Positions 281 to 51,721 of a DNA stretch of 64,000 nucleotides are shown here, in pieces. The DNA is taken from assembly GCA_030697795.1 (NCBI GenBank), contig JAUYOV010000004.1:11831-75830 (forward strand), read 5' to 3'. The number at the start of each line of letters is the position of its first letter. Positions within the stretch are counted from its first letter, which is position 1. The stretch is from a bacterium. Lineage in GTDB: Bacteria; Patescibacteriota; Minisyncoccia; JACQLN01. Below the pieces are notes generated by a model. The model had not been told where the DNA came from and made no database searches. It saw only the letters and a program-made list of their open reading frames with translations. The position numbers and the translations under genes are program-made.

Positions 281-975
281 CAAGAAAGCCGTAAGCCGAA
301 TTCTGTTCCAATTTTGTTTGAGCAATAGCGAAATTACAAAATTGAGAACCCTGCGAAGCCCGTTAGGGCGAAGTAGGGTAGTCCGCCTTTGCTAAAGCTA
401 CGGCGGATCTCAATTTTTTATCTGTTCGCTACGCTCACAGAAAAAATTGGAGATAATCATCTGTCTGGGATTGTTATTGCTAACAACCTCTGGCGACTCT
501 TCCTTAATAATTTAGATTACTAAGGACACGGTCTTGCACCAAGTGGGGTTTACAACTACCTAGTATTGCTACTAAATAGAATCGCGTTTGACGCGACACT
601 TTTCACCTTTAGACTCAATTTGCATTGAGCTTAGTATAGTCTCTGTTGCATAGGCTCACGGAATCAGCTGTCATCAATGAACCTATATCCAATAAAGGAC
701 ACTTTCCCTGGGCTTGAACCTAATTTTCATTAGATCTGCTCCCGGTTGCATTTCGCAACCACTTGTTTTGCCAATTTAATCTGAGTTTACGAAGCTATTA
801 AATTGAGCACCCTGCGAAGCTTGTTAGAGCGAAGTAGGGCTCCACCGTCGCTAAAGCTATGGTGGATGCTCAACTTTATATTTATTCGCTAAGCTCATAA
901 ATAAAGTTGGCAGGTGTTCGGACTTTCCTCCCCTCGATTACTCTCGGGGCGATTATCTCACTTTCTTGACAATAG
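281..975 (-). ncRNA. rnpB: RNase P RNA (bacterial type A), unusually long (~695 nt) because of two inserted ~115-nt homologous modules
   Basis: On the minus strand: 5' GUCAAGAAAGUGAG...UCGAGGGGAGGAAAGUCCGAACACC (P1/P2/P4 5' strand; compare E. coli GGAGGGGAGGAAAGUCCGGGCUCC) and 3' ACAGAAUUCGGCUUACGGCUUUCUUGACC (compare E. coli ACAGAACCCGGCUUAUCGG). The P1 pairing GUCAAGAAAG/CUUUCUUGAC closes the molecule. No real ORF lies in 170-1000. Confidence 0.7.
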
Positions 976-1480: not shown

Positions 1481-3251
1481 TAAGCTTTAATTGTATCTCT
1501 TTATTACCGTTCCATTCGTTAATATCCAACTCATAAACAATATCTAAAGTGTCGCCGATTTTAAAATCTTCAGCAAGCCCAGCTGTGTCGCGTTTGACGC
1601 GATGATTAAAAAATAAAACTGGAAATTCTTTACTTGTTTTTTTATCATGGGCGAAAATTTTCAAATGCTCGGAATTCTTCCCTAAGAAAACAAGTTTTTT
1701 GACTTCAATATTCTTACTTAAAAATTTTGGCTTAAAATTATTCATGCCAAACGGTTCAAACTTTTTAAGTGAATCCATCAAACCCCAATCAATTTCGCCC
1801 AAGTTTATTTCTGCGCTAATTTTTAATTTTTTCTGCAATAACTCTGAAGTTAAAACATTTTTAGCGTATTTATTTAAACCCAATTTTATTTTTTCTGCAT
1901 TAGAAACTTCAAAAGTGCAACCACCGGCCGCAGGATGCCCGCCATACTGTATAAATAAATCTTTAACCGAACCTAAAGCGTCTATTAAATTAAATCCCTC
2001 TATACTACGAAGTGATCCCTTGGCTTTAGTCTCGTCAACACTTTGATAAAGAATTACCGGCCGTTGATAGCGTTCAGCAATTTTAGAAGCCACCAAACCC
2101 AAAAGGTTGACCGACCAATCGGCCGAACCTTCCATAATAAAACTGGGTAATTCTGGATAAGCGTCTATCCGCGAACGGACATCTTTTAAAACTTTCTCTA
2201 CTATCTGCTGGCGCCTACGGTTATTATCGTTGAGCGATAAAACCAATTCATTTATTTTAGATTCGTCGCTACTAGTTAAAAGTTCGTAGGCTAAATTAGC
2301 GTGAGCCATACGGCTGGCCGCGTTAAGGCGCGGGCCTAAAGTAAAACCTAAAGTAAAGCTATCTAAATTAGTAGTAAGGGTTTCTAAGTTATATTTAGCC
2401 TCAACTCCGGCTGACTCCATTAATTTTCTTAGGCCAATTCTTTTGGTTTGAGCCAGAACAATTAAACCATATTTGACCATAACCCTATTTTCATCTAAAA
2501 GCGACACCATATCGGCCACTGTAGCCATAGCCACTAAATCTAAAAGCCATTTTTCTTTACCCTCCGAAGCTTTATGCGTAGGAGGGCTACCTTGAGTTGA
2601 CATCAAAGCACAATAGAGCTTGAACACTAAACCCGCCCCACACAAACCCTTAAACGGATATGTATCGCTTTCTTGATAAGGATTTACAAAAGCCACTGTT
2701 GCTGGGTTTCCTGCCACGGTTTGATGGTGATCTACCACAATCACATCCACACCTTTCTCTTTCGCCCACTCTATTTCTTTAATATTGGTGGTACCGCAAT
2801 CTAAAGTTATTATAAGCTTAGCCCCATTTGAAATTATTGATTCTAAAGCAGTTTGATTAACCCCGTGCCCTTCTTTTTGCCGATCGGGCATATACACCTC
2901 TACTGGATAATTTATGCCTTTAAAATATTCGCCTAAAACCGTGGCTGAACAGACGCCATCTACATCGTAATCAGCGTAGATAACTATTTTTTCCTTGCCC
3001 TGCGAAGCCTTGTGCGAAGCAGGGTTACCATTTATTGCCCGCCTGATTCTCTCACAAGCCTTATCCATATCTTTAAGCAAAAAAGGATCATGCAAACCGC
3101 CATCATATTTTGGATTAAAAAAACTTTCTATTTTTTCTAGCGTATTCAAACCGCGCTCAAACAGCATTTGACTGACCATAGCCGGATACTCCGAAAACTT
3201 AGCTAAAAAATCAGGCCTGGCCTGATCACTAAAAATCCATTTATATTTCAT
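1458..3251 (-). CDS. recJ: Single-stranded-DNA-specific exonuclease RecJ (DHH/DHHA1)
   Basis: DYDVDGVCS and VIVVDHHQ DHH motifs; length 597 aa. Contains two in-frame GC-rich hairpin inserts, both encoding HKAS(Q/E)GKEK. Confidence 0.85.
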   Translation of the reverse strand: MKYKWIFSDQARPDFLAKFSEYPAMVSQMLFERGLNTLEKIESFFNPKYDGGLHDPFLLKDMDKACERIRRAINGNPASHKASQGKEKIVIYADYDVDGVCSATVLGEYFKGINYPVEVYMPDRQKEGHGVNQTALESIISNGAKLIITLDCGTTNIKEIEWAKEKGVDVIVVDHHQTVAGNPATVAFVNPYQESDTYPFKGLCGAGLVFKLYCALMSTQGSPPTHKASEGKEKWLLDLVAMATVADMVSLLDENRVMVKYGLIVLAQTKRIGLRKLMESAGVEAKYNLETLTTNLDSFTLGFTLGPRLNAASRMAHANLAYELLTSSDESKINELVLSLNDNNRRRQQIVEKVLKDVRSRIDAYPELPSFIMEGSADWSVNLLGLVASKIAERYQRPVILYQSVDETKAKGSLRSIEGFNLIDALGSVKDLFIQYGGHPAAGGCTFEVSNAEKIKLGLNKYAKNVLTSELLQKKLKISAEINLGEIDWGLMDSLKKFEPFGMNNFKPKFLSKNIEVKKLVFLGKNSEHLKIFAHDKKTSKEFPVLFFNHRVKRDTAGLAEDFKIGDTLDIVYELDINEWNGNKEIQLKLIDYNKQN

Positions 3252-5181: not shown

Positions 5182-5191
5182 ATATTAATAA

Positions 5192-5273
5192 ATATATCAT
5201 CCCGAGTAGCATCATGGAGAAGACTATTTATATAAATAAAGAGGCTCCATGTCGTCTGCGAGGGGTGATATAT
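5192..5273. repeat. Copy A of the ~80-nt intergenic hairpin element, a candidate REP-doublet (REPIN-like; core CCGAGCAGCATTATGGAGAAGACT...AGGCTCCATATCGTCTGCGAGG)
   Basis: One of 4 copies sharing a ~60-nt core (about 80-90% identity by eye), with terminal inverted arms (ATATATCATCCC/GGGTGATATAT) that covary between copies. Confidence 0.8.
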
Positions 5274-5289
5274 TTACGCCAATAAACAC

Positions 5290-8267: not shown

Positions 8268-8354
8268 CAATCGCATCATTCCGAGCAGCATTATGGAGAA
8301 GACTAAATTATAAATAAAGAGGCTCCATATCGTCTGCGAGGAGTGATGCGATTG
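8268..8354. repeat. Copy B of the ~80-nt hairpin element
   Basis: Same core; terminal arms CAATCGCATCA/TGATGCGATTG. Confidence 0.8.
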
Positions 8355-9691: not shown

Positions 9692-9713
9692 GGTAATGGT
9701 AAAAAATTTAAAA

Positions 9714-9793
9714 AACATTGTCCCGAGCAGCATTATGGAGAAGACTATTTTATAAAATAAAGAGGCTCTATATCGTCTGCGAGGGATAATGTT
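9714..9793. repeat. Copy C of the ~80-nt hairpin element; fills the whole adk-map spacer
   Basis: Same core; arms AACATTGTCCC/GGGATAATGTT. Confidence 0.8.
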
Positions 9794-9795
9794 TT

Positions 9796-10362
9796 TTATA
9801 ACCCCAGTACCTGTTTAATTCGCAAATGAATTTCCTCTATACTACCCATACCATCAACCTTAATCAACCTATTCGATTTTTCGTAATATTCTATAGCTGG
9901 CATTGCATCGGTATTAAACCATTCCAAACGATGACGAATTGATTCTTCGGTATCATCTTTGCGTCCGCGTTTTAAAAGCCTTGTTACTGCTTCGTCTTCT
10001 GTAATATCTATTAAAACAACTTTAATATCTACTCTACCCAACCAACTTAAAACTTCGTCTATTTCTTTGGCTTCATCTAAACGACGAGGTGAGCCGTCAA
10101 AAATTATATTTTCTCCATCTTTTAATTTATAAACTAGTTCCTTCTGCCATAAAAAAGCGGCAATCCACTCTGGGGGCAGACCACCAGAATCCACAACTTC
10201 TTTAACTTTTTTACCAGCTAAAGTCTCTTCTTTTTCTAATAAACGAAAAAGATCGCCGGCGTAAATATAAAGACAGGGTTCTATAAGCTTTTTTAAAAGC
10301 TTAACCTGCGTGCCCTTACCCGACCCCGATCTGCCTAAAACGATTATGGTTTTACTAGACAT
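9796..10362 (-). CDS. adk: Adenylate kinase
   Basis: GRSGSGKGTQ P-loop and DGSPRRLDEA; start taken at MSSKT. Confidence 0.8.
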   Translation of the reverse strand: MSSKTIIVLGRSGSGKGTQVKLLKKLIEPCLYIYAGDLFRLLEKEETLAGKKVKEVVDSGGLPPEWIAAFLWQKELVYKLKDGENIIFDGSPRRLDEAKEIDEVLSWLGRVDIKVVLIDITEDEAVTRLLKRGRKDDTEESIRHRLEWFNTDAMPAIEYYEKSNRLIKVDGMGSIEEIHLRIKQVLGL

Positions 10363-11884: not shown

Positions 11885-14806
11885 ATGGTAACCAATATGG
11901 ATCTCTCTAGATTTAAAAAAGAACTAGGCGCCTTAAACCCCGAACAACGCCAAGCGGTGGAGACAATTGAGGGACCGGTTATGGTTATAGCCGGCCCTGG
12001 TACGGGAAAAACACAAATTTTAACTTTGCGGATTGCTAATATTTTAAACAAAACCGACACCAACCCCGAAAATATTCTAGCTTTAACTTTTACTGAATCT
12101 GCTACCGCCAACATGAGGCGTCGTCTAACCAGTTTGATCGGTACGCCTAGCTACTACATTAATATCCATACTTTTCACGGTTTTTGTAACAAGCTTATCC
12201 AAGATTACCCAGAAAACTTTCCAAAAATAATTGGCTCCACCAATGCTAATCAAGTAGATCAAATACAAATTATTAGAAAGATTATAGACGAGCATGGTTT
12301 TAAGAATTTGAAGCCATTCGGTAGTAAGTATTATTACGTTACCGAAATACTAAAAAACATCCGCCAATTAAAAAGCGAAGGTATTGGTCCTGTTGAATTT
12401 AAAAATATAACTTCTAAAATAAATCTCGAAGACCCCAAAGAGGAAAAAAATACCGAACGCTTAAAAGAACTATCTTTGGTATATAAAAAATATCAAGCCG
12501 AACTTTCAAAAAGAAAGCTATACGATTTTGAAGATATGATTTTGGAAACCATAAATTCGCTCAAAAAAGATAAGGATTTTTTGTTAGACCTTCAAGAAAA
12601 ATACCAATACATATTAGTAGACGAACACCAAGACACCAACGGCGCCCAAAATAAAGCCTTAGAGCTTTTAACCAATTATGATGAGAACCCAAACTTGTTT
12701 GTGGTAGGCGACGAAAAACAAGCTATTTACCGTTTTCAAGGCGCTAGTTTAGAAAACTTTTTATATTTTAAAGAAAAGTTTAAAAAAGCGAAATTAGTAG
12801 AATTAAAACAAAATTATCGCTCTACCCAAAAAATATTGGATGCCTCACATAGCTTAATAAAAAAAAATATAGCTGTCTTGGCTTTAACCAAACTCCAAGC
12901 CCAAAAAGGCAGGACCGACCTTCCTAGAAGGTCGGTCCTGCAGGTGGCAACCTGCGCTACACCCGAAATAGAATACCTTTTTATAACTCAAAAAATAAAA
13001 GAACTTCTAAGGCAAAAGGTTGAAGCTAGCAAAATTGCAATCTTATATAGAGAAAATAAAGATGCTTTTTCTGTTTCCGACTTTTTAACTAAACAGAATA
13101 TAAAACACGGCATAGAATCCGATGAAAACATATTAGAAGATATGGATATTAAAAAACTAAATATTCTTTTTGATGCCATAGAAAACTTTCCTTCTTTAGA
13201 ATTTTTAGCTCCAGCCTTACACCTAGATTTTTTAAATATAAACCCCTTAGAAGCTTATAAAGCCATAGAATCAAAAGATTTTAATAGTTCGCCTAATGTG
13301 TCTAACCTATTTAAAAAAATAGGTGAGCTTAAAAAATATAGCCGTAATAATGTTTTTGTTAAATTTTTTGAAAAAGTAATAAACGATACTGGTTTTTTAA
13401 AAAACATACTGGCCGAGGCCAATTACAACGAAAGATTAAATAAACTTCATGCTTTGTTTAGCGAAGTTAAAAAAATAAATTTTGCTAACCACAATTTTTC
13501 TTTACCAAACTATCTAAATCATTTAGAAATTTTAAGGGAACATAACTTGCCTATTCAAATTAAAACAAAAACATTACCCGCAAATGTTCGCTTAATGACG
13601 GCTCACCGAGCCAAAGGCCTAGAATTTGATTATGTATTTATTATAGGCGCCTACAATGGCCATTGGGGCAATAAAAGAAATATGAGCCATATAAAACTCC
13701 CCATAAAAACAAGCTTTGATGCTGATAAAATAGAAAAAAACGAGGATGAGCGCAGATTGTTTTATATGGCCATCACTCGAGCCAAAAAAGAAGCTTACAT
13801 AAGTTATTCCACTTCTTCGTTTGACGGCAAAGAGCAAGTGCCTAGCCAATTTATAAACGAAATCGATCCCGCCTTAAAAGAAGAACATATAATTGAGCAA
13901 AATCCAGAAATTAAAAAAATTGTACTAGCTTCAATTTCTAATAACAAAGCACCAAAAACAAATGAAAAAACTTTTGTGGTAGATATATTTTTGCGCCGTG
14001 GCTTCTCGCCTACCTCGCTAAATAATTATTTAACCTGCCCCTGGAATTTTTTCTATAACAATCTGCTTCGCATACCCAAAGCCCAAGCCAACTATTTAAT
14101 TTATGGCAACGCCAAGCACAAGGCCTTACAGCTTTTTTTTGATGAGAAAGAAAAAAATAAAAAAATAGGCTCTAAATTTATAATAGAAAAATTTATAGAA
14201 GATTTACGAAATTACCCTTTAATACCGAAGGATCATGAAACCTTGCTTAAAAAAGGAATAGAAAGTTTAACCGCCTATTATAATTTTTATAAAGATTCTT
14301 GGCCCGAAAAAACAGTAAACGAATACAACATTAAAGGAGTTAGTTTTAACTTAGGCGCGCAAGAAATAAAACTAAGCGGAAAACTAGATCGCTTAGAACT
14401 AAAACCAAATAGCCCAGCTGTTACAGTAGTAGATTACAAAACTGGAGCCGCCAAAAGCCGAAACGAAATTTTAGGCAACACCAAAAACGCCGATGGTAAT
14501 TATTTTAGACAACTTGTTTTCTACAAATTGCTTTTAGATATGTTACCCAACAAAAAATATAATATGCTGGCTGGTGCAATTGACTTCACTGAACCCCTCG
14601 ACTCCGCTCGACAAGGCTCGGGGCAAGCCGCTCGGGGCAAGCCTGCCTTTAAAAGAGAGGTTTTTGAAATTTCTAACGAAGAAACAAAAGCACTTAAAGA
14701 AACTATCACTAAATGCGCAAATGAAATTTTAAACTTAAAATTTTGGAACAAACTCTGCGGTGAAAAAGATTGTGAATATTGCGAGTTAAGAAAGTTAGTT
14801 TCTTAA
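11885..14806 (+). CDS. UvrD/PcrA-family SF1 helicase fused to a C-terminal PD-(D/E)xK nuclease domain with a Cas4/AddB-like Cys cluster
   Basis: AGPGTGKT Walker A, DEHQDTN motif II, DRLELK...VVDYKTG nuclease core, C...CGEKDCEYC. Contains two in-frame GC-rich inserts. Confidence 0.8.
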   Translation: MVTNMDLSRFKKELGALNPEQRQAVETIEGPVMVIAGPGTGKTQILTLRIANILNKTDTNPENILALTFTESATANMRRRLTSLIGTPSYYINIHTFHGFCNKLIQDYPENFPKIIGSTNANQVDQIQIIRKIIDEHGFKNLKPFGSKYYYVTEILKNIRQLKSEGIGPVEFKNITSKINLEDPKEEKNTERLKELSLVYKKYQAELSKRKLYDFEDMILETINSLKKDKDFLLDLQEKYQYILVDEHQDTNGAQNKALELLTNYDENPNLFVVGDEKQAIYRFQGASLENFLYFKEKFKKAKLVELKQNYRSTQKILDASHSLIKKNIAVLALTKLQAQKGRTDLPRRSVLQVATCATPEIEYLFITQKIKELLRQKVEASKIAILYRENKDAFSVSDFLTKQNIKHGIESDENILEDMDIKKLNILFDAIENFPSLEFLAPALHLDFLNINPLEAYKAIESKDFNSSPNVSNLFKKIGELKKYSRNNVFVKFFEKVINDTGFLKNILAEANYNERLNKLHALFSEVKKINFANHNFSLPNYLNHLEILREHNLPIQIKTKTLPANVRLMTAHRAKGLEFDYVFIIGAYNGHWGNKRNMSHIKLPIKTSFDADKIEKNEDERRLFYMAITRAKKEAYISYSTSSFDGKEQVPSQFINEIDPALKEEHIIEQNPEIKKIVLASISNNKAPKTNEKTFVVDIFLRRGFSPTSLNNYLTCPWNFFYNNLLRIPKAQANYLIYGNAKHKALQLFFDEKEKNKKIGSKFIIEKFIEDLRNYPLIPKDHETLLKKGIESLTAYYNFYKDSWPEKTVNEYNIKGVSFNLGAQEIKLSGKLDRLELKPNSPAVTVVDYKTGAAKSRNEILGNTKNADGNYFRQLVFYKLLLDMLPNKKYNMLAGAIDFTEPLDSARQGSGQAARGKPAFKREVFEISNEETKALKETITKCANEILNLKFWNKLCGEKDCEYCELRKLVS

Positions 14807-18173: not shown

Positions 18174-18995
18174 TCAGTTGGTGCCGACCAACTCGGCCTC
18201 TTCTTCTGCTTCGAGATGGCCATTGCCGACGGGATCACCATCAACCCCGATCTCGCCTTCAGCGAGGTCTTCGACCACCTCGGCAGTGGTATTGCTGTCG
18301 ACGAGGCCTTTGACAACCCCGATCCCACCGAAGTTGATGTTCACCAGCAGGGCTTTCACTCCGAAACACACGGAGACGAAGTCCCTACCGGTTTCGGTCG
18401 GAGGCTCGAAACCGATGTGGTCGAGAACACTGCGAAAGTCCTCTTCCACGAATTTCCCCGCGCCTTTGAAGACGAAAGTGAGAAGATTCCTCACCACACT
18501 TCCTCCGCCCTGCATCTGGAGCGCATTCGCGAGCCAGACGACGGAGGGGAGTATTAACCCCACGCGGGTTGCCATCTTGAGCGTCTTGATGGCGTCGTCG
18601 CCGAGACCATGCCTCTTGAGTCCCGCCATTTCCATGCTCTCGTCTTGGATCCGCTCTCTCCGCGCTTTTTGCGTGGCATCATCACGGCTATACCGCGCAC
18701 AGCCGTTATGATCGAGGTAGCACGTAATCCAGCACTCGAGCTGGTGACCACCACTTCCTTCCTTGTAGCGGAAGATCTGGCCGGGAGCGAGAACCATTCC
18801 ACTGGCTTTCGCCTGAGTGTAGAGGAAAGTCAAAATCTTATCTCCCGGACAAAGAACACCGTACCCTCCAGTCTCTTCGTCTCTCAGGACCATGACCTCC
18901 TCTTTTCCGATGGCCGTCTGGCGCATATGCACGAACTGCTTGCGCTCGTTCGCAACATCCGCCTGGCGAACTATCTTGTTCGTCTTGGCACTCAT
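18174..18995 (-). CDS. Compositionally foreign (GC ~57%) orphan protein of 273 aa; start at second Met
   Basis: Abrupt GC jump confined to this ORF. Perfect SD AAGGAGG sits 8 nt upstream of the ATG at 18993-18995. Plus-strand ORFs here are high-GC artefacts. Confidence 0.6.
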   Translation of the reverse strand: MSAKTNKIVRQADVANERKQFVHMRQTAIGKEEVMVLRDEETGGYGVLCPGDKILTFLYTQAKASGMVLAPGQIFRYKEGSGGHQLECWITCYLDHNGCARYSRDDATQKARRERIQDESMEMAGLKRHGLGDDAIKTLKMATRVGLILPSVVWLANALQMQGGGSVVRNLLTFVFKGAGKFVEEDFRSVLDHIGFEPPTETGRDFVSVCFGVKALLVNINFGGIGVVKGLVDSNTTAEVVEDLAEGEIGVDGDPVGNGHLEAEEEAELVGTN

Positions 18996-19079
18996 AGCAA
19001 AAACCTCCTTATTGAAAAACCCCTGAATCGCGACCGTCATAGGCCGTCGCCGCCTATATTAAGAACAATTATGTTTATA

Positions 19080-19135
19080 AGTATAGTCTATATCATAACT
19101 CTTGTCAAGAGCCACCCTTAAAATCTCAAGGGTGG
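19080..19135 (-). promoter_or_regulatory. Conserved hairpin (CCACCCTTAAAATCTCAAGGGTGG) plus TTGACA-N18-TATACT promoter upstream of the GC-rich gene
   Basis: The same element recurs upstream of the second GC-rich gene (35935-35990). Confidence 0.5.
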
Positions 19136-19654: not shown

Positions 19655-19699
19655 CAAGATTAGCTTATTAGATCGTTAGCTTCCTAGAAAATTCCTAGA

Positions 19700-19729
19700 A
19701 AGCTAAAAGCTAAAAGCTAAAAGCTAAAA
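19700..19729 (+). repeat. (GCTAAAA)x4 microsatellite directly abutting the ssb start codon
   Basis: Perfect heptamer tandem; no SD present. Confidence 0.8.
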
Positions 19730-20227
19730 ATGAATCTTAACAAAATATTTGTCCTGGGCAATTTAACCCGAGACCCCGAGGTGCGTTCTCTGCCATCGGG
19801 CGGAAGCGTGGCCAGTTTTGCGGTAGCCACCAATAGAGTTTGGAATGATAAAAACGGGCAAAAACAACAAGACACCCAATTTCATAATGTTGTTGTATTT
19901 GGCAAAATGGCCGACATCTGCGCTAAATATCTTAACAAAGGCAAAATGGTTTTGGTGGAAGGCAGAATCCAAAACCGCAGTTGGGATGCGCCAGATGGCA
20001 CAAAAAAATATAGAACCGAAATCGTCGCCGAAGGCATTCAATTAGGGCCAAAAACAGCTGGCGAAACAAGCGGAGCAAGTTTTACATCTAATAGGCCAGA
20101 TACTCCCGTAGCCAATAAACCACAAGGACAAAACCAAAAAGCCGCCTCGCAGAATGCGCGGGAAGAAAATATACCTATAATAGAACAGGATGCGGAAGAA
20201 GTTGATATTTCGGATATACCATTTTAA
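19730..20227 (+). CDS. ssb: Single-stranded DNA-binding protein
   Basis: OB-fold N-terminus, Gly/Gln-rich tail, C-terminal DIPF. Confidence 0.9.
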   Translation: MNLNKIFVLGNLTRDPEVRSLPSGGSVASFAVATNRVWNDKNGQKQQDTQFHNVVVFGKMADICAKYLNKGKMVLVEGRIQNRSWDAPDGTKKYRTEIVAEGIQLGPKTAGETSGASFTSNRPDTPVANKPQGQNQKAASQNAREENIPIIEQDAEEVDISDIPF

Positions 20228-23653: not shown

Positions 23654-26044
23654 TTAGGAAAAATTTTCTTTGTTTTCCTCTTCTGTGTGTATATCTATAG
23701 CTTCTGGTGGAACTTCTGATTTTACTAAAACCTCTCTAGGTTTAGCCCCTTCACCGGGACCAATCATGCCTTGAGCTTCTAGAATATCGAGTAATCTTGC
23801 GGCGCGGGCGTAGCCGACTCTTAATCGTCTCTGGAGTAAAGAAGCCGAAGCTTTACCAGCCTGCATAATAGCTTCTTTGGCTTGGAGTAAAAGTTCATCT
23901 TCGTCACTAGAATCCATTTTATCAAAACTTACACCGGTAAGTATTGGTCTATGATCTGAGACAGCTTTTTCCAAACCAAGCGCTTCTTCTGGATTAGCAT
24001 CAGGCGCGTCTTCGGGTAGATTAGATCTTATAAACGAAACAACTTTTTTAACTTCTTTTTCCGAAACAAAAGTGCCTTGAATACGTTTGGGCTTGGGCGA
24101 ATCAGAAGTTACAAAAAGCATATCGCCCATGCCTAAAAGTTTTTCGGCGCCAGCCGAATCTATAATTGTCCGTGAATCTATTTGCGAAGCCACCGCAAAA
24201 GCTATGCGCGTGGTAATGTTAGCTTTAATTAAACCCGTAATAACTTCTACCGAGGGCCGCTGTGTGGCTAAAACCAAATGTATGCCCACCGCCCGCGCCA
24301 TCTGCGCTAAACGCACTACTGTAGCTTCTATTTCACGCCCGTAAGTAGACATTAAGTCGGCCAGTTCATCTATAATGATAACCAAATAAGGCATTAAATC
24401 GTCGCCTTTTTTAGCATCAACTTGAGAATTAAAACCGCCAATATCTCTAACTTTTTTTTCGGAAAGCAGGCTATATCTTCTTTCCATTTCTGAAGTCGCC
24501 CATTTTAAAGCCGACACCGCTTTTTTAGGCTCTACTATAACTGGGGTTAAAAGATGCGGAATACCATTATACAAAGTTAATTCAACTCTTTTAGGATCAA
24601 TCATTATAAAGCGTAAAATTTCTGGCGAATGTTGATACAGCAAATTAACAATTAACGAATTTATGGCTACGCTTTTACCCGAACCCGTGGCGCCCGCAAT
24701 AAGCAGATGAGGCATTCTGGTTAAAGCCGACCACATCGACCGGCCAGAAACATCTTTGCCTAAACCAATATTTAAAAAGTTTTTATGCTCCGAAGCCTCA
24801 AAACCCTGAAGCAAAGCTTTTAAACGCACCACCATAGATTTTTGATTGGGTATTTCTATGCCCACTAAAGATTTTCCCGGAATCGGCGCTTCTATTCTTA
24901 AAGATTCTCCGCCTAGGGCTAAAGATAAATCTTTTTGCAAAGCTAATATGCTAGCCAGTTTGACTCCAGTGGCTGGTTTTAAAGTAAACTGGGTTACCGC
25001 AGGGCCAATATTAACTTCCGACATTTCTACCGGAATATTAAAATTCTCTAAAGTTTTCTGAATAATTATGGCATTGCCCTTAATGTCGCCCGTCACCGGC
25101 ATAGAGCCTTCGTCTTCTAATAAATCTAATGGTGGAAATTTATAGTTAACGGAAAGTGGCAACACACTAAATCCGCTCGCCATATTTTCTTGTTTCTTTT
25201 TTGAAACCTCATCTGACTTGGCCATTACTGACGTACCTTGAGGAGAATTTATAGTGACAGTGTCTTCAGCCGGTTTGGGCGCTTCAACTTTTTTAGCGGT
25301 TTGAGGTAGTTTAGCTTTGCTGGCTAACGTTGCAATTTTAGTTACTAAACCTTTTTCTAAAACTAATTTTTTTTCTGGAATCATTTCGCCATTTTCGTCC
25401 GCCTTAAAAACAAATTTTTCTTTTATTTGATCTTTCAAAGGCAAACGAAAAACAATCAACATAGCCGAAAAGAAAAACGCCACAAAAAATATTAAAGAAC
25501 CCCAAAAACCAAACATCTGCCTAAACGGCCAGCCAAAATAATAACCCATTTTACCGCCAGCCTGATTTTGCGAAAATATTTCCATCAAGCCCAAAAAACT
25601 TAAAATTAGAACACTGCCCCCGATTATAGTGGAACCTAATATTTTTTTCTTGTCGGAAGTTAAAATAAAAAACGACATTAAAAACATCGTTAAAGGCACA
25701 AAGAAACTACCGGAACCAAACATATAATCGGCACCGGCTGTAATGGCTTCGGAAAAAGATCCCGACAAGCCAAAGAAAGCTAAGGTAGTTACCAAAGCCA
25801 CAGCCAGCAAAAGAACGCCCACTACGCTTCTTTTAACGCTTGATTCTAAATGGAGCCAAGAAGTTGTTCTTTTTGGCTTTTTTACTTGAGATTTTTTAAG
25901 ATTTTTAATATCCTCCTTTTCTTTTTCAGCAGGCATTAGGTTTAATCTATTACTAGAAAATAATAACATACAAAAAAGCCAAATAACAACAACGTTTTTC
26001 AGGAAGGGCGGTCCTTCCGATAGATTTCCTGCTATTTTTGGCAA
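23654..26044 (-). CDS. ftsK: DNA translocase FtsK/SpoIIIE; true start downstream of the ORF-track start, whose first codons overlap a REP
   Basis: GATGSGKS Walker A, C-terminal gamma wHTH domain, N-terminal TM segments. Confidence 0.9.
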   Translation of the reverse strand: MPKIAGNLSEGPPFLKNVVVIWLFCMLLFSSNRLNLMPAEKEKEDIKNLKKSQVKKPKRTTSWLHLESSVKRSVVGVLLLAVALVTTLAFFGLSGSFSEAITAGADYMFGSGSFFVPLTMFLMSFFILTSDKKKILGSTIIGGSVLILSFLGLMEIFSQNQAGGKMGYYFGWPFRQMFGFWGSLIFFVAFFFSAMLIVFRLPLKDQIKEKFVFKADENGEMIPEKKLVLEKGLVTKIATLASKAKLPQTAKKVEAPKPAEDTVTINSPQGTSVMAKSDEVSKKKQENMASGFSVLPLSVNYKFPPLDLLEDEGSMPVTGDIKGNAIIIQKTLENFNIPVEMSEVNIGPAVTQFTLKPATGVKLASILALQKDLSLALGGESLRIEAPIPGKSLVGIEIPNQKSMVVRLKALLQGFEASEHKNFLNIGLGKDVSGRSMWSALTRMPHLLIAGATGSGKSVAINSLIVNLLYQHSPEILRFIMIDPKRVELTLYNGIPHLLTPVIVEPKKAVSALKWATSEMERRYSLLSEKKVRDIGGFNSQVDAKKGDDLMPYLVIIIDELADLMSTYGREIEATVVRLAQMARAVGIHLVLATQRPSVEVITGLIKANITTRIAFAVASQIDSRTIIDSAGAEKLLGMGDMLFVTSDSPKPKRIQGTFVSEKEVKKVVSFIRSNLPEDAPDANPEEALGLEKAVSDHRPILTGVSFDKMDSSDEDELLLQAKEAIMQAGKASASLLQRRLRVGYARAARLLDILEAQGMIGPGEGAKPREVLVKSEVPPEAIDIHTEEENKENFS
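26000..26032. repeat. REP1 palindrome CAGGAAGGGCGGTCCTTCCGATAGATTTCCTGC at the 3' end of RAYT-1
   Basis: Further copies at 26526-26542 (inside RAYT-1), 26735-26750, 59691-59722; related sequence inside the helicase CDS at 12909-12941. Confidence 0.8.
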
Positions 26045-26706
26045 TCTTTATAGGAAAGCCAATCAAGAATAAAATCATCAAAGTCCTTTACACCGTCGAA
26101 ATAATCTGGAAAAGCTTTTTTGTTGATAATTTTTTGCTCTAATCTTTGAACACCTACATAATCAAGATAACTGGAATAATTATAACCATTTAAAAAATTT
26201 TGGGCCGCTAATTTATTTTTAATACCAGTTTCTTTCCAGTTAGGTTCAATCAACTTAATAGAATTTAAGTGTGTATAGGCAAAAATATATTTCAGATATT
26301 CATCTCTTTCAATATGTTTTGCTTGAAACCTTCCCTGAAATAAAGAACCGCTACGATCATGTCTTTTATTGAAATACATGGAATAACCGGTGGATACTTT
26401 TCCCATAAATTTAGAGAGTCCACCTTCTACAGTTTCTCTTGCAAGTAAATGGAAATGATTCGGCATTAATACATGTGCGCCTAAAGCAGTAATATCATCG
26501 CCAGTATTTACATCAAAAATATCTGGGAAGGACCGCCCTTCCAAAAGAAGCTCATTGATATCTACACGGTCATTGTTATTACAAAGATAAAGGAGCATCA
26601 AAAAACGTCTATATTCGCCTGTAGATTCAAATATAGTCCTCTTATCCACACCTCGATTGTAGATATGATAATATTCCCCTACAGAGAAAGTGAATTTACG
26701 TTGCAT
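26032..26706 (-). CDS. REP-associated tyrosine transposase (RAYT; IS200-like HuH Y1 transposase), copy 1
   Basis: GEYYHIYNRGV, HuH motif LMPNHFHLL, catalytic-Tyr helix region; flanked by REP1 palindromes. Confidence 0.7.
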   Translation of the reverse strand: MQRKFTFSVGEYYHIYNRGVDKRTIFESTGEYRRFLMLLYLCNNNDRVDINELLLEGRSFPDIFDVNTGDDITALGAHVLMPNHFHLLARETVEGGLSKFMGKVSTGYSMYFNKRHDRSGSLFQGRFQAKHIERDEYLKYIFAYTHLNSIKLIEPNWKETGIKNKLAAQNFLNGYNYSSYLDYVGVQRLEQKIINKKAFPDYFDGVKDFDDFILDWLSYKDCQK

Positions 26707-26766
26707 TCAATAATTATAATTCCTTAGGGTATTTATCGGAAGGGCGGTCCTTTTTAGGCCTAGGGT

Positions 26767-27017: not shown

Positions 27018-27123
27018 TCCGCGGTAACTCAGAGTGCTGACTTAAGGGCCGCAAGCCCCGGCCGGTTAGAGTGCCTAGCTGATAACTAGGAGGTCGTTGG
27101 TTCGAATCCAACCCGCGGAGCCA
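27018..27123 (+). tRNA. tRNA-Ile (anticodon GAT) carrying a ~31-nt hairpin insertion in the D-loop
   Basis: Acceptor TCCGCGG/CCGCGGA, D-stem ACTC/GAGT, anticodon arm CCTAG-CTGATAA-CTAGG, T-arm GTTGG-TTCGAAT-CCAAC, G73-CCA. Insert 27033-27063 AGTGCTGACTTAAGGGCCGCAAGCCCCGGCC. Confidence 0.5.
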
Positions 27124-30745: not shown

Positions 30746-30841
30746 AACACAGAATTTCTAATTTCCAATATCTAAATCCTAAACAATTTCTAAATTCTAA
30801 TTTTCCAGAATATATTTGGAGCATTGTGATTTGAGATTTGT

Positions 30842-32128
30842 TTAGAGTTTAGTGCTTAGGATTTGGAGTTCGATTAGAAATTTTTCTAACTCTTTTAGTT
30901 TAACCATCTCCACTTTCTCGCTGGCGCGATTTTTGACCTCCACACTTTCTTGCGCCAAAGTTTTATCGCTAACTATTATCCGATATGGAATACCAATTAA
31001 ATCAGCATCCGACAACTTTACACCGGCCGATTCTTCGCGATCATCCCATAAGACGTCAAACGTCTTTAAAGATTGATACAGCTTCTCGGCTTCTTTCTTG
31101 GTATCGCCCAATGAAACTAAATGAATTAAAAACGGAGCCACGCTCTTTGGCCACTTCATTCCAGCCTCATCGTTAAAAACTTCGGCCAGCACTCCAACTA
31201 AACGGCTCATACCTATACCATAACTGCCTAAGTATGGCGGTTTATCTTTACCATCGGAATCTTTAAAATTAATCCCCATTTTTTCGGAATAAACTGTGCC
31301 AAATCTAAATATATTTCCAATTTCAACGGAACTAGCTTCTTCAACTTGTCCACCGCATTTTGGACAAGGATCCCCAATCTTGTGAGTATAAATTTCTTTG
31401 TTTTGCGCCCAATCACATTCGCCAGCCGGCGAATTGCAGAAATAAATATTATCTTCACCTACTGGGCTTACTAACTGAAATTCATGTGTATGACCCGAAG
31501 TAAACACACCGCCCGAAGCTTCAACCACCTTAACATCTTTTAATCCAACCCTGTTAAACACTCGTAAATAAGCATCTTTAACTTCCCAGTAAAATTTGTC
31601 TAGATCTTCCCCTGTGGTATGCAAACTATATAAATCTTTCATCATAAACTCCCGCCCGCGCAATAGGCCTGACTTAGCCCGAGCCTCGTTTCTAAACTTG
31701 GTAGAAAAGTGATAAAGCTTAATCGGTAAATTTTTATAGCTTAAAGAATTTTTCCTAACTACATCTAAAAATATTTCCTCGTGTGTAAAAGAAAGTCCAT
31801 ATTCTTTTTCGTCTACCGATTTAAACTGATACATTATCTGTTTAACATTTGGATCTGCCCAACGGCCGGTTTCATTCCAAACATCGCGAGGATGAAGTAA
31901 TGGCATTAAAACTTCGGCACTGCCAATAGCATTCATTTCTTCACGCACGATTTGTTCTATTTTTTGATAAACCCGCCAACCTAAAGGCAAAAAGGTGTAT
32001 GAACCCGCCATAAGCTTGTCTACAAAACCCCCACGCAAAAGCAACCTAGCATTAGTAGCTGTTTCGTCCTTTGGATCATCCCTGCGAGTGTTTATAAACG
32101 ATTGAGAGTAACGCATAAGAGTTATCAC
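30842..32128 (-). CDS. proS: Prolyl-tRNA synthetase (short form lacking the INS editing domain)
   Basis: MRYSQSF..LLRGG..YTFLPLGWRV..IVREEMN..G..EVLMP, closely paralleling E. coli ProRS motifs. Confidence 0.85.
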   Translation of the reverse strand: MITLMRYSQSFINTRRDDPKDETATNARLLLRGGFVDKLMAGSYTFLPLGWRVYQKIEQIVREEMNAIGSAEVLMPLLHPRDVWNETGRWADPNVKQIMYQFKSVDEKEYGLSFTHEEIFLDVVRKNSLSYKNLPIKLYHFSTKFRNEARAKSGLLRGREFMMKDLYSLHTTGEDLDKFYWEVKDAYLRVFNRVGLKDVKVVEASGGVFTSGHTHEFQLVSPVGEDNIYFCNSPAGECDWAQNKEIYTHKIGDPCPKCGGQVEEASSVEIGNIFRFGTVYSEKMGINFKDSDGKDKPPYLGSYGIGMSRLVGVLAEVFNDEAGMKWPKSVAPFLIHLVSLGDTKKEAEKLYQSLKTFDVLWDDREESAGVKLSDADLIGIPYRIIVSDKTLAQESVEVKNRASEKVEMVKLKELEKFLIELQILSTKL

Positions 32129-32748: not shown

Positions 32749-32786
32749 GATCCCGCACCTTTTTAATTAAAAAGGTGCGGAATTTT
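32749..32786. terminator. Second copy of the CCCGCACCTTTTT/AAAAAGGTGCGG terminator hairpin
   Basis: Same stem as 20577-20617. Confidence 0.55.
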
Positions 32787-32789
32787 ATT

Positions 32790-32823
32790 TAGCATGAGCC
32801 ATGCGATCGCATGACTCATGCTA
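32790..32823. repeat. GCGATCGC-core palindrome TAGCATGAGCCATGCGATCGCATGACTCATGCTA (REP3 family)
   Basis: Family members at 50245-50280, 50896-50929, 52902-52931. Confidence 0.7.
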
Positions 32824-33942: not shown

Positions 33943-34099
33943 AAATGTCTAATATCCAATTACTAATATCGAATCAATGACTAATTTATAAATGCCTAAT
34001 TTTGAATTTAGTTATTAGACATTGGGATTTGATTAGAAATTATCCCTCGATTGGGCTCGGGATCCTGAGCCTGTCGAAGGAGGTATTAGAAATTGGAAA

Positions 34100-34691: not shown

Positions 34692-34720
34692 ACATGTTCA
34701 ACATTCAATGTTGAACATGT
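34692..34720. repeat. REP2 palindrome ACATGTTCAACATTCAATGTTGAACATGT, left flank of RAYT-2
   Basis: Perfect palindrome; copies at 34901-34925 (inside the CDS) and 35390-35418. Confidence 0.85.
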
Positions 34721-34734: not shown

Positions 34735-35391
34735 ATGAGAAAAACAATTTTGGCCGAAGGCGAATATTATCATATCTATAATCGTGGTGTAGAGAAAAGA
34801 AACATATTTTTAAACGATAACGATAAGTGGCGATTTATGACCCTCTTACTAATATTTCAAGGCAAGGGTCATATTGATAATATGCAACGTATTGTTAAAC
34901 TTGTTCAACATTCAATGTTGAACAAAGAACCATTTGACGACATCCTTTTGAATAAAAAGGTTGAACTGATATGTTTCTGTCTGATGCCAAATCATTATCA
35001 CCTTATATTAAAAGAAATTAAAAATGGAGGAATTTCTAGTTTTGGGCAAAGATTAGGTAACAGTTATACAAAATATTTCAACACTAAATATAAACGCACT
35101 GGACACTTATTTGGTGGAAGATTTCAAACGGTTCACATAACTCAAAATACATATCTCAAACATTTATCTTCTTATATACACAATAATCTAACAGAACTAA
35201 ATAATTGGAAAAAATTGGAAAACGAATATTTTTGGTCAAGTCTGCCAGATTATGTAAATAAAAACCGATGGGATAAGTTTCTAAACCCGGAAATAATTCT
35301 AAACCAGTTTAGGGGTAAAAATGATTATCTAAATTACATCAAAAATAATCGAAACAAAATTAAAAAACTAGATGGTTACTATATAGATTAA
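34735..35391 (+). CDS. REP-associated tyrosine transposase (RAYT), copy 2
   Basis: GEYYHIYNRGV, LMPNHYHLIL HuH motif; paralog of 26032..26706. Confidence 0.7.
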   Translation: MRKTILAEGEYYHIYNRGVEKRNIFLNDNDKWRFMTLLLIFQGKGHIDNMQRIVKLVQHSMLNKEPFDDILLNKKVELICFCLMPNHYHLILKEIKNGGISSFGQRLGNSYTKYFNTKYKRTGHLFGGRFQTVHITQNTYLKHLSSYIHNNLTELNNWKKLENEYFWSSLPDYVNKNRWDKFLNPEIILNQFRGKNDYLNYIKNNRNKIKKLDGYYID

Positions 35392-35418
35392 TTGTTCAAC
35401 ATTCAATGTTGAACAATT
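35390..35418. repeat. REP2 palindrome, right flank of RAYT-2
   Basis: AATTGTTCAACATTCAATGTTGAACAATT. Confidence 0.85.
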
Positions 35419-37969: not shown

Positions 37970-38058
37970 GCAGAAATATTATCTTGAGCAGCATTGTGGA
38001 GAAGACTATTTATATAATAAAGAGGCTCCACATCGTCTGCGAGAGATAATGTTTCTGC
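37970..38058. repeat. Copy D of the ~80-nt hairpin element
   Basis: Same core; arms GCAGAAATATTATCT/AGATAATGTTTCTGC. Confidence 0.8.
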
Positions 38059-39074: not shown

Positions 39075-39269
39075 AATAGTATAAATTACGAAATTCTAAT
39101 ATCTAAATTCGAAACAATATCTAAATATTAAATTATAATTTGGAATTTTGAACATTGTGATTTGTTTAGAATTTAGTGCTTAGTATTTATAATTTTCTGC
39201 CGACTTTATACTAACATCCTAAAACCATTTTTCAAACTAATCAAAGTATGCTAATTTAAAGTCGTTAAA

Positions 39270-40601: not shown

Positions 40602-40637
40602 TAATAAATCTCTAATATAAATATAAATAATTAAACT

Positions 40638-40712
40638 CCTCCCCGCACAGAGTGCGGGGTTTCCTATATGGAATTAAAAAGAGCAACATCTCTGTTGCTC
40701 TTTGAGTTTTTT
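40638..40712 (+). terminator. Tandem terminator hairpins (CCCCGCACAGAGTGCGGGG; AGAGCAACATCTCTGTTGCTCT plus T-run)
   Basis: Two stems each followed by T-runs. Confidence 0.6.
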
Positions 40713-45265: not shown

Positions 45266-45335
45266 AAATAGCTTTTAGCTTTTAGCTTTTAGCTTCCTAG
45301 GTTTACCCTAAAAAGCTAGTCAGCTAAGAAGCTAA

Positions 45336-50144: not shown

Positions 50145-50244
50145 TGTGGCTTTATTGTAACGGAAAAAGGCTAATAAAATCAAAGTTGCTCAATCGCCCT
50201 ACCATCTAATATTTCGTATATTTAACTTCTTTAATAAAATCCAC

Positions 50245-50280
50245 TTAGCACGAGTCATGCGATAGCAGTTCTCATGCTAA
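50245..50280. repeat. REP3-family palindrome (degenerate) overlapping the 3' end of PaaX-like paralog 2
   Basis: TTAGCACGAGTCATGCGATAGCAGTTCTCATGCTAA. Confidence 0.6.
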
Positions 50281-50844
50281 ATCAAAAATCTTGAGCAAGT
50301 GTAATTCATTATCTAAATCCGTAGCCGTAATAATTCTAACGTAGGAACGAATACTAAAATATTCAATCAAGAAATTGATTTCATCTTGGCAAGGATAAGG
50401 CTGTATCAAAACACTTTTTTGATATTCATAAAAACCTAATCTTTTTAGAGTTTCTCTTAAAGCTTCGCGGGCAGGTTTATGTTTTTCTGGTATATCAAAT
50501 AAAACTATTCGCCATTTTTTATCCCAGACTTTAGGTTTTTTGATTCCCATATTGTCTATATTAAAGGTAATGGCTTTATCCTTGCCTTTGTCTGTTAAAA
50601 TCATAGTTAAAGAACCGTCGGGGTTTTCATGTTCGCGGATAAGTTTGGATTTATACAAGCTGGCTATAGCTCTTTCTAAAGACTGTTTGTTAATTTTTTT
50701 CCATTCTTCAGCCGTGCTTTCTAATACTCGAAAATATTGTTTAGAGGTTCTGGCAAAGCTAAGACCTATTCCAGTAAATAAAAGTAATAATGCTTTTTGT
50801 TGGTTGGGACCTAAGCGTTGAATTTTCTTTTTCAAATTAATCAT
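50272..50844 (-). CDS. PaaX-like winged-helix regulator with Cas2-fold C-terminal domain (paralog 2)
   Basis: WRIVLFDIPEKHKPAREALRETLKRLGFYEYQKSVLIQP. Confidence 0.55.
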   Translation of the reverse strand: MINLKKKIQRLGPNQQKALLLLFTGIGLSFARTSKQYFRVLESTAEEWKKINKQSLERAIASLYKSKLIREHENPDGSLTMILTDKGKDKAITFNIDNMGIKKPKVWDKKWRIVLFDIPEKHKPAREALRETLKRLGFYEYQKSVLIQPYPCQDEINFLIEYFSIRSYVRIITATDLDNELHLLKIFDLA

Positions 50845-50895
50845 TCTTCTGCATTATTTTATTAGTTAGTTATTATATTATAATTATGGTAATTA

Positions 50896-50929
50896 TAGCA
50901 CGAGAACTGCGATCGCAGTTCTCGTGCTA
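50896..50929. promoter_or_regulatory. Perfect 34-nt palindrome TAGCACGAGAACTGCGATCGCAGTTCTCGTGCTA in the promoter region of PaaX-like paralog 2
   Basis: REP3 family; candidate operator. Confidence 0.5.
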
Positions 50930-51039
50930 AGTTGAGGGGAAAAAAAGAAACAAAAAACAGAACAGATCCGATCTAGATTAAATTACTTATCTTATCAGCT
51001 AGCAAAAAGCAAAATAAAGCAAAATAAAAAAGGAGACTG

Positions 51040-51072
51040 CAGTTTTTGCAGTCTCCCTTTTGCTCGGGCGAA
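51040..51072. terminator. Bidirectional terminator hairpin GGAGACTGCAGTTTTTGCAGTCTCC
   Basis: Stem flanked by A-run and T-run. Confidence 0.5.
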
Positions 51073-51155
51073 GGTTGAACCTTCGGGTTTAAAATCAGAG
51101 ATAAAGCAATAAAAAAAGCGCGGAACCCTTTTGTAGGCTCCGCGCGATAAGTCTC

Positions 51156-51635: not shown

Positions 51636-51721
51636 TATGAGTCCTCCTTTTTGGGTAAAGGGTAAAGGATTTTAAATGAACCAATGGTATATTATACCAA
51701 TGCTGTTATTTTGTCAAATTA

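Follow-up and report, generated by a model that had tools for sequence, protein, structure and literature searches.

Two GC-rich in-frame inserts in a Patescibacteria helicase-nuclease gene as probable copies of unrelated miniature repeat families

The helicase-nuclease gene and its inserts

The DNA considered here (the window) is a stretch of 64,000 nt from a metagenome-assembled genome of the Patescibacteriota (assembly GCA_030697795.1, contig JAUYOV010000004.1, positions 11,831 to 75,830); the data from the source genome consist of this one 64-kb window, and the coordinates below are counted from its first nucleotide. The GC content of the window is 38%, and its proteins find their best matches in metagenome-assembled Patescibacteria/Parcubacteria, the nearest relatives being from Hainich groundwater assemblies (wells H41, H43, H51 and H52). 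The gene in question (11897-14806, plus strand, with an alternative ATG at 11885) encodes a UvrD/PcrA-type superfamily 1 (SF1) helicase with a C-terminal, Cys-rich PD-(D/E)XK nuclease of the AddB/Cas4-like type, an assignment that was made in an initial annotation and is upheld by Pfam (UvrD-helicase, UvrD_C and PDDEXK_1). The reading frame is uninterrupted over 973 codons, the protein has a 100% identical database match (P0001), and PcrA (1pjr) is the nearest solved structure. Within this gene of 34% GC are two short inserts of 65-75% GC: (i) a perfect palindrome at 12909-12941 (site 1), and (ii) a partly duplicated segment at 14594-14647 (site 2). Both inserts are best explained, with good confidence, as passenger copies of miniature dispersed repeats, non-coding and from two unrelated families, that reside in disordered surface loops of the protein.

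The AlphaFold2 model of the helicase (mean predicted local distance difference test score, pLDDT, of 79) predicts that both inserts occupy disordered surface loops. The two sites lie in segments with pLDDT below 50, residues 310-349 for site 1 and residues 908-921 for site 2, the latter forming a beta-hairpin turn of the nuclease domain with strands 893-901 and 924-927 on either side. The peptides predicted to span the inserts are LDSARQGSGQAARGKPAFK, EPLDSARQGSGQAARGKPAFK and IYVKPSTSSGQAAVEVWN. When compared to orthologs, both segments are lineage-variable in-frame insertions, as the initial annotation had suspected, and the same applies to the copies in alaS and mnmA described below; the polarity of these changes (gain versus loss) is assigned by parsimony against one close relative.

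The sharp contrast in composition between inserts and gene, together with the metagenomic source of the assembly, raises the question of an assembly or binning artefact, in which chimeric reads or foreign GC-rich fragments would be misassembled into AT-rich genes. Such an artefact is scarcely credible. The same kinds of in-frame insert are found in independent ENA, NCBI, JGI and Logan assemblies, P0003 is present on four separate contigs, and the copies display a graded decay.

The site 1 palindrome and the RAYT-like transposase genes

The site 1 insert (plus strand) is a perfect 33-nt palindrome, GCAGGACCGACCTTC-cta-GAAGGTCGGTCCTGC, whose arms of 15 bp enclose a loop of 3 nt; the initial annotation had divided the same 33 nt as 16+3+14. 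The palindrome is in frame and, as originally read, encodes RTDLPRRSVLQ (with the preceding KG, residues 341-353 of the helicase). A small adjoining hairpin, GCAGGT-ggca-ACCTGC (12940-12955, plus strand), is part of the minimum-free-energy fold and belongs to the same replaced GC-rich patch. Hairpins of this type are strongly overrepresented: the window has 13 perfect stems that are 10 bp or longer and have a GC content of 50% or more, compared to 0.11 expected from dinucleotide shuffles. The 15-bp stem of site 1 is the longest of the window (the maximum across 100 shuffles is 12 bp), and its RNA fold is highly stable (-35.3 kcal/mol, z = -6.8).

The two halves of the palindrome resemble, in opposite orientations, a 17-nt hairpin (GGAAGGGCGGTCCTTCC, termed REP1 after the repetitive extragenic palindromic or REP sequences), with 15/17 and 13/17 identical positions. 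The REP1-like half-sites of the initial annotation are, therefore, matched by a hairpin that flanks a Y1 (HUH) transposase gene of the same window, and site 1 consists of two such REP1-like units in inverted arrangement, a doublet similar to a REPIN. This transposase gene (gene 1, 26035-26706, minus strand), about 13 kb from site 1, resembles those of the REP-associated tyrosine transposases (RAYT). It scores 25.8 bits against Pfam Y1_Tnp (cut-off 23) and has the motifs YHIYNRG, MPNHFHLL and YTHLN. REP1 is found directly downstream (26002-26018, GGAAGGGCGGTCCTTCC), directly upstream (26738-26754, GGAAGGGCGGTCCTTTT), and in frame within the gene (26526-26542, read as LLEGRSFP). A dispersed fourth copy (59693-59709) is part of 46 nt (59691-59736) that are 83% identical to the copy at 26000-26045. 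At one mismatch or less, REP1 is thus present in the 64 kb as four copies plus the helicase doublet; at two mismatches or less, it is found 7 times compared to 1.6 expected.

A second RAYT-like Y1 transposase gene (gene 2, 34735-35391, plus strand; Y1_Tnp 39 bits, above the cut-off) encodes a protein that is 36% identical to that of gene 1. The HUH and catalytic Tyr motifs are readable in both translations (MPNHFHLL/MPNHYHLI and Y-x-H-x-N). Gene 2 has a palindrome of its own, TTGTTCAACATtcaATGTTGAACAA, which is located upstream (34692-34720), in frame within the gene (34901-34925) and at the stop codon (35390-35418). Both transposase genes of the window are, thus, bracketed by cognate REP hairpins. 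The two palindromes are unrelated in sequence, and each gene holds its own in-frame copy at the same aligned residue position (~51-67).

This arrangement is widespread among relatives of the transposase genes, of which there are at least 528 among the 600 candidate stretches listed (JGI and ENA metagenomes); here and below, counts from collection scans of element loci, viral contigs and transposase relatives are lower bounds. A shared, locus-specific palindrome that differs in sequence from locus to locus brackets 70 of the 73 relatives with both flanks available, and 14-18 of the 73 have the full layout of upstream, internal and downstream palindromes (loci L181-L260). Two or more hairpins with a common AGG-N5-CCT apex are found at 54 of 80 relatives' loci. 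On the basis of the linkage of gene and REP in the window, its recurrence in 70/73 relatives and the established biology of REP/RAYT systems, the RAYT-like enzyme or its relatives are inferred to mobilise the site 1 hairpin as single-stranded DNA.

The occupancy of site 1 varies among helicase orthologs. The closest relative (L001, 85% nucleotide identity) has no hairpin; P0002/L001 and P0004 have an ordinary LKANQKTAGNKIKV loop at this position. A hairpin encoding RTDL(P/L)(R/G)RSVLQ is common to the window and the distant L006. L002 and L004 bear another hairpin near site 1, offset by three codons and encoding RSDLPRRSDLG. The L002 doublet (AAGGTCTGACCTT-ccacg-AAGGTCAGACCTT) has 15 nt in common with the REP of the RAYT-like locus L193; thus, two REP variants appear to have entered nearly the same helicase loop in separate lineages.

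The site 2 insert and the 24-nt element

The site 2 insert encodes PLDSARQGSGQAARGKPA. The initial annotation described a twofold repeated segment, which holds in part: a 14-mer, GCTCGGGGCAAGCC, is perfectly duplicated in tandem (14616-14643, detected by Tandem Repeats Finder and by repeat search) and CTCGAC likewise occurs twice, while the whole 31-mer is single. The duplication is read here as one 24-nt element with a second copy inserted in its loop. The outer element is split into a left part, CCCCTCGACTCC (14594-14605), and a right part, GCTCGGGGCAAG followed by CC (14630-14643), all on the plus strand; the inner copy, GCTCGACAAGGCTCGGGGCAAGCC (14606-14629, plus strand), is nested between them and, with the right part, reads as the 14-nt tandem duplication. 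The same nesting geometry is found in the viral contig L050. Without 14606-14629, the window reads CCCCTCGACTCCGCTCGGGGCAAG (14594-14605 joined to 14630-14641), and this reconstituted outer copy matches copies in a cyanobacterial (L164) and a Polyangiaceae (L171) genome at 24/24 positions. The consensus of the element is CCCY-TCGAC-N2-3-GCTC-RGGG-CAAG, composed of a 4-bp stem, a conserved 11-12-nt loop and a 3' CAAG tail.

An origin in place, in which slippage during replication and template switching (fold-back errors) acted on a tolerant loop without any mobile element, would account for the perfect 14-nt tandem duplication, for native codons that are replaced and not simply interrupted, and for a 12-nt insert in mnmA (GPSSAR) that completes its palindrome by use of a native CGG codon. 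This origin is improbable and is contradicted by the identity of the site 2 sequence (24/24) to copies in unrelated phyla. Moreover, site 2 matches a covariance model built from other genomes (14600-14631, 34.8 bits, E = 2e-7), the apparent duplication has a nested-copy geometry that is found elsewhere, and the halves of site 1 match a REP that flanks a transposase gene.

In an alignment of helicase orthologs, the check proposed in the initial annotation, 108 of 120 have a short form at site 2 (IDF.EP[DN]DKGRFK.E), and L001 is empty at this site as it is at site 1. Approximately 10 scattered orthologs, together with the window, have an extension of the L[DNQG]x[AVD][RQ]GKP type immediately after the Glu-Pro. 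The occupied orthologs share a GC-rich DNA element in varied states of decay, not a conserved peptide encoded by unrelated DNA; this is the reverse of the outcome that the initial annotation had named as its refutation. In L002, the site reads CCTC-TCGACAAAGCTC-GAGG-CAAGCC, over which the window gains 8 amino acids (ARQGSGQA); L179 has CCCC-TCAACTCCGCTC-GGGG-TAAACC, and L178 and L180 have decayed copies that are more shifted toward AT.

Further copies of the 24-nt element reside in two other protein-coding genes and in an intergenic region of the window. The alaS gene (minus strand) has two copies in sense orientation. The copy at site B (49561-49591, read as KPSTSSGQAA; covariance model 30.8 bits) represents a net gain of 24 nt compared to L177 and is absent from most orthologs, and that at site A (49741-49771, read as DPSMDSGQ; 20.3 bits) is a clean 24-nt insertion before a native GAGGGC, again relative to L177. 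The copy at the N-terminus of mnmA (53824-53855, plus strand; 35.3 bits) is antisense to the gene, which reads it as TCPERSRK. The intergenic copies form a pair in opposite orientations (34042-34081), next to AT-rich heptamer-like repeats. The recurrences listed in the initial annotation are, thus, real, with the following adjustments of position: the intergenic motif is at 34063-34081 (minus) with a degenerate partner at 34042-34063 (plus), and the alaS motifs are at 49565-49587 and 49745-49767 (both minus); the mnmA motif is at 53828-53851.

Hairpins of the 24-nt motif type number 6 in the window; 0.2 are expected, and none of 100 shuffles has more than 2. The covariance model, built solely from other genomes, has 5 matches in the window at E < 0.01, 4 of which are in coding sequence; in 97 kb from relatives it has 2 matches, the L002 helicase site and L178 2579-2599. 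A structured definition of the element is required, as the loose 12-mer TCGACAAGGCTC, allowed 2 mismatches, is not enriched by itself. Rfam has no match at any of the elements, either at gathering thresholds or at E values up to 5. The closest relative (L001 and L177, which belong to one assembly) lacks the 24-nt element at each of the four coding sites; its alaS has a degenerate copy of its own (6300-6400 of L177; GPSLDSGSPSGRP, CCCTCGTTGGACTCGGGA) at a third site that is vacant in the window. Copies of the element occupy three sense frames and one antisense frame of the genes, giving LDSARGKP and ARQGSGQA in the helicase, PSTSSGQA in AlaRS and, antisense, CPERSRK in MnmA. With several frames and both orientations in use, the conserved entity is DNA or RNA and not a peptide.

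Distribution and structure of the 24-nt element

A scan of one-genome-per-species contigs and of viral contigs with the pattern TCGAC-N2-3-GCTC-RGGG-CAAG identifies at least 120 loci across at least 12 bacterial phyla in the former set. The groups that have the element include the Acidobacteriota, Chloroflexota, Cyanobacteria (Nostoc, Nodularia and Anabaena), many Patescibacteria, Gemmatimonadota, Planctomycetota, Bacteroidota and several proteobacterial classes. The motif is also present in a DPANN archaeon (L159, a Nanoarchaeota genome from Hainich well H51, the aquifer system of the window's closest relatives) and in at least 50 IMG/VR viral contigs (L007-L056), some of which have tandem or nested arrays (L050, L036 and L044). 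In the loci of the Candidate Phyla Radiation (CPR) and DPANN, 14 of 20 copies are inside long open reading frames (ORFs), where they are mostly read as PSTSSGQ.

The stem is perfect (CCCT..AGGG or CCCC..GGGG) in 93 of the 130 copies among the matches listed, the upstream four bases being outside the search pattern. At the closing pair, 96 copies have U-A and 20 have C-G; this covariation, which concerns the one base pair free to vary under the search pattern, is reached by none of 500 shuffles and collapses in slid controls. Across phyla, the loop and the CAAG tail hardly vary. The possibility that a longer and variable outer stem encloses the element was considered and set aside, as the enrichment is weak (at least 8 bp in 5 copies compared to 0 in controls, and none in most copies).

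The element is seen as a clean insertion in the cyanobacterial locus L164, where 24 nt interrupt an array of ATTACCA heptamers in phase and with no target duplication; embedding in heptamer repeats is likewise found in L163, L071, L133 and L151. Nested copies, in which the left halves are stacked and then the right halves, are found in 11 cases, including the window and L050, mainly in two geometries. The few clean insertions reveal no evident target-site consensus. The lack of a target duplication at the one clean site (L164) and the self-insertion into the conserved loop would fit a single-strand mechanism of the HUH type, or an RNA intermediate of the kind proposed for the small dispersed repeats (SDRs) of cyanobacteria.

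That the inserts are selected features is a further possibility to be weighed. They could be functional protein loops, or mRNA or DNA hairpins with a regulatory role (translational pausing, mRNA stability, DNA-uptake or recombination signals), and their usefulness there would explain why the same sites are filled repeatedly. The same loops are indeed filled in scattered orthologs (the EP|D turn of the helicase, sites A and B of AlaRS), a cognate REP is retained inside the RAYT-like genes at a constant position, and the near invariance of loop and tail across phyla points the same way. However, the inserts are absent from most orthologs, the closest included, the copies decay toward AT, and they differ in frame and orientation with no conserved peptide. 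The fold of site 2 is no better than that of shuffled sequences, and a motif shared across phyla is ill-suited to serve as a signal of self-recognition in uptake. Selection is, thus, an unlikely explanation, and a selected peptide in particular is contradicted, as most orthologs lack the inserts and more than one frame is used.

Other in-frame inserts and the role of recombination

At least 10 short, repeat-derived, in-frame segments are found in the window, in the helicase-nuclease, AlaRS, MnmA, RecJ, SSB and the transposases. The mnmA gene (52689-53876, minus strand) encodes a protein 44 residues longer than its closest ortholog, owing to four in-frame inserts of four repeat kinds: (i) the 24-nt element in antisense (53829-53852), (ii) an AT-rich heptamer repeat that encodes EFPIFNFQFSNSNKLKAKSYK (53394-53456), of the same family as the intergenic repeats at 45267-45335 and 19660-19726, (iii) a perfect 32-nt palindrome centred on CGATCG (52901-52932), and (iv) the 12-nt GPSSAR palindrome (52790-52806), which is also present in three other orthologs. 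Compared to syntenic relatives, recJ has GC-rich in-frame inserts at 2997-3026 and 2553-2579, and the tail of SSB has one at 20138-20164; the encoded peptides are NPASHKASQG, THKASEGKE and KAASQNARE. The first of the RecJ inserts has CCCTGCGAAGCC in common with a pair of direct repeats at 329-378 and 790-839.

The length changes are multiples of three throughout: +12 (site 1) and +39 (site 2) in the helicase, +27, +24 and +33 in alaS, and +24, +54, +42 and +12 in mnmA. All of the helicase, alaS and mnmA copies examined are stop-free, and the other window-specific inserts are likewise gains of whole codons. Judged by these reading frames, the inserts are presumably translated. The alternative, in which they remain untranslated through ribosomal bypass or RNA excision as in the 'byp' elements of yeast mitochondria, has points in its favour, as the inserts are GC-rich and of hairpin type in an AT-rich genome, reside in essential genes and near catalytic motifs (GPCGP...WN of AlaRS), and include the very stable hairpin of site 1. 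Yet the preservation of frame and the lack of stop codons are expected only of inserts that are translated, and no pairs of take-off and landing codons were noticed, though no dedicated search was made. Bypass or excision is, on these grounds, very unlikely.

Homologous recombination appears to have contributed to the distribution of the inserts. Around site 1 (codons ~321-380), the identity of the window to the close relative L001 falls to 0.49-0.62 compared to 0.77 to the distant L006, and this segment reads as a short mosaic patch that bears the hairpin. At site 2, L002 is filled and L004 is empty, although their genes are 96.7% identical. This pair was rejected as a case of fresh insertion: the first 2.1 kb are near-identical and the last 700 nt have diverged, such that the difference is a recombined 3' tract in which site 2 is held. 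The mosaic patch and the L002/L004 tract indicate that occupied alleles also move by homologous recombination. Such transfer may account for some of the patchiness and for the recurrent filling of the same loops, beside a selection filter or a putative target preference.

Comparison with known systems

The insertion of palindromic repeat DNA in frame within the housekeeping genes of a reduced genome is reminiscent of the Rickettsia palindromic elements (RPEs), which are found in unrelated housekeeping genes, are translated and are compatible with the fold of the protein (PMC10969869). RPEs are approximately 150 bp and form ten Rickettsia families, each with a conserved peptide. By contrast, the elements of the window are 24-33 nt, five-fold smaller, with several reading frames and both orientations in use and no conserved peptide; they are also found in another phylum, and one of the two families is common to many phyla.

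The REP/RAYT systems share with the window a Y1 HUH gene flanked by cognate hairpins, each gene with its own REP, and the presence of the hairpin as an inverted doublet; its dispersal across the genome may be a further parallel. A REPIN is defined as an inverted REP doublet that forms a long hairpin (PMC3116915), and classical REPs are extragenic with a GTAG or CGTC tag (PMC3733652). The REPs described here differ in lacking this tag and in having a common AGG-N5-CCT apex. They also lie in frame within the helicase and both transposase genes and are, hence, not extragenic, and the transposase proteins are under the NCBIfam threshold. Site 1 has most of the hallmarks of a REP/REPIN-RAYT system, and the label 'RAYT-like' is used for these three reasons. 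Among the matches listed in a literature search, no report links RAYT or REPIN to the Patescibacteria, and the search revealed nothing relevant on the sequence of the 24-nt motif or on in-frame palindromic elements in CPR.

The SDRs of the Nostocaceae, attributed to Elhai et al. 2008 (Genome Res 18:1484), are reportedly 21-27 nt, form a hairpin with compensatory changes, nest within one another and reside in heptamer repeats or HIP1 sites. By this description, the 24-nt element has in common with SDRs its length (as revealed by the L164 insertion, alaS site A and the nested copy), self-nesting, heptamer context and a hairpin with a compensatory change. Copies are, moreover, present in Nostoc, Nodularia and Anabaena. 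SDRs are reported to be restricted to the Nostocaceae (PMC5861425). The range of the 24-nt element is wider, with at least 12 phyla, viral contigs and a DPANN archaeon, and its CPR copies are mostly intragenic.

The GC clusters of yeast mitochondria, which are mobile GC-rich hairpin mini-elements, are also similar in that they populate an AT-rich genome and are found within protein-coding genes. Lang et al. 2014 reportedly described the 'byp' elements as GC-rich hairpins within yeast mitochondrial genes of AT-rich composition. A byp disrupts the reading frame and is skipped by the ribosome, whereas the inserts examined in the helicase, alaS and mnmA are frame-preserving and stop-free. [quoted passage not shown] MITEs, however, exceed 100 bp and are bounded by terminal inverted repeats and target-site duplications, neither of which is seen at the clean insertion of 24 nt in L164; the 24-nt element is a single short hairpin.

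Other features of the window

Long intergenic palindromes centred on GCGATCGC, the HIP1 octamer of cyanobacteria, are located at 50896-50929, 50240-50279 and 32783-32823 (e.g., TAGCACGAGAACTGCgatcGCAGTTCTCGTGCTA), and peptides related to these palindromes (SMRLLQQSHA) are found as inserts in other MnmA orthologs. The alaS and mnmA genes, which are adjacent in L177, are separated in the window by 2.5 kb (50184-52688) that hold a PaaX_M (Cas2-like domain) protein, an ORF of no assigned family and IS3-like split ORFs (HTH_32 at 52068-52661; rve_3 at 51743-52168). The direct repeats at 329-378 and 790-839 are 50-nt, GC-rich and 84% identical, and bracket a match to the bacterial RNase P RNA (399-739, minus strand; 68 bits compared to the Rfam gathering threshold of 100).

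Intergenic AT-rich repeats with a period of approximately 7 nt (AATTTCT AATTTCC AATATCT ...) are found at 30753-30882, 33944-34041, 39084-39206 and 62242-62377; they resemble the tandem heptamer repeats of cyanobacteria, and one block adjoins the intergenic pair of 24-nt elements. A repeat family of approximately 58-86 nt (GAGCAGCATTATGGAGAAGACTA...AAAGAGGCTCCATATCGTCTGCGAG; 5190-5275, 9711-9796, 8283-8340 and 37986-38043) is 81-86% identical among copies and always intergenic. Two stretches of higher GC (18174-19121 and 57705-59579; ~46% over 2 kb and locally up to 60%) cover an ORF that has no Pfam match and is conserved in relatives, and a 624-residue ORF with a faint trypsin match. A marginal tRNA match (27049-27119, 30.1 bits) that is not called by ARAGORN adjoins tRNA-His, and a sub-threshold HgcC-like match (40618-40702, 33.5 compared to 50 bits) is located in an intergenic region with GC-rich hairpins.

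Proposed mechanism and significance

In the explanation favoured here, in which both helicase inserts are copies of miniature repeats, each insert would have landed in, or recombined into, a disordered surface loop and would persist because it kept the frame and brought no stop codon. At site 1, the insert would be a REPIN-like doublet of two inverted AGG-N5-CCT REP units moved by a RAYT-like enzyme. At site 2, the element would be inserted with no target duplication, and preferentially into its own loop, by machinery that acts in trans. The occupied allele would then spread between related lineages by short-patch homologous recombination, and the copies would afterwards decay toward AT or be trimmed. 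The mobilisation chemistry is, for both elements, putative.

Several observations weigh against this explanation. For the REP family, the sole NCBIfam match of the two transposase proteins (REP_Tyr_transpos, NF047646) scores 37.6 and 31.7 bits compared to a cut-off of 80, the 64 kb hold only the four REP1 copies and the doublet, and the relatives' loci have no REP1 copies. The flanks of REP1 (...tcaGGAAGG...CCTTCCgata) have no GTAG/CGTC tag as found in classical REPs. The site 1 hairpin is also present in L006; thus, the copy in the window predates its lineage or was imported. For the 24-nt element, the folds are unremarkable (z of +1.25 to -1.8), with no strong hairpins formed by site 2 or by the alaS and mnmA copies. 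No partner gene was found for it, with a Y1 transposase nearby at 1 of ~170 loci, and the clustering of neighbouring ORFs around its loci yields generic families and related phage genes only. No pair of empty and filled alleles recent enough to represent a fresh insertion was found, and most inserts also replace some native codons, which blurs their boundaries.

CPR/Patescibacteria genomes are among the smallest and most streamlined in bacteria. The findings suggest that, in these reduced genomes, miniature repeat DNA repeatedly lengthens the surface loops of essential proteins, which would give selfish mini-elements a tangible route to new insertions and loop diversity. This route would account for the odd, GC-rich, low-complexity peptides (PSTSSGQA, LDSARGKP and RTDLPRRS) of metagenome-derived proteins and for variation in the length of CPR orthologs, and such inserts can mislead alignments, phylogenies and structure predictions for CPR proteins. 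REP/RAYT biology would, in addition, be extended to a phylum for which the literature search found no report.

The near-invariant 24-nt sequence across phyla and viral contigs points to a widely conserved mobilising activity. More tentatively, and as a speculation that may well prove wrong, the element may be an active, pan-prokaryotic, ultra-small mobile element, among the smallest known, that is site-specific, inserts without target duplication, prefers its own loop and is mobilised by a conserved host or phage enzyme; together with RAYT-driven REP doublets, it would regularly supply new loop sequence to the essential proteins of CPR bacteria. If so, that a CPR bacterium shares identical 24-mers with a cyanobacterium and with a myxobacterium would be due either to horizontal spread that still continues or to tight constraint imposed by the mobilising enzyme.

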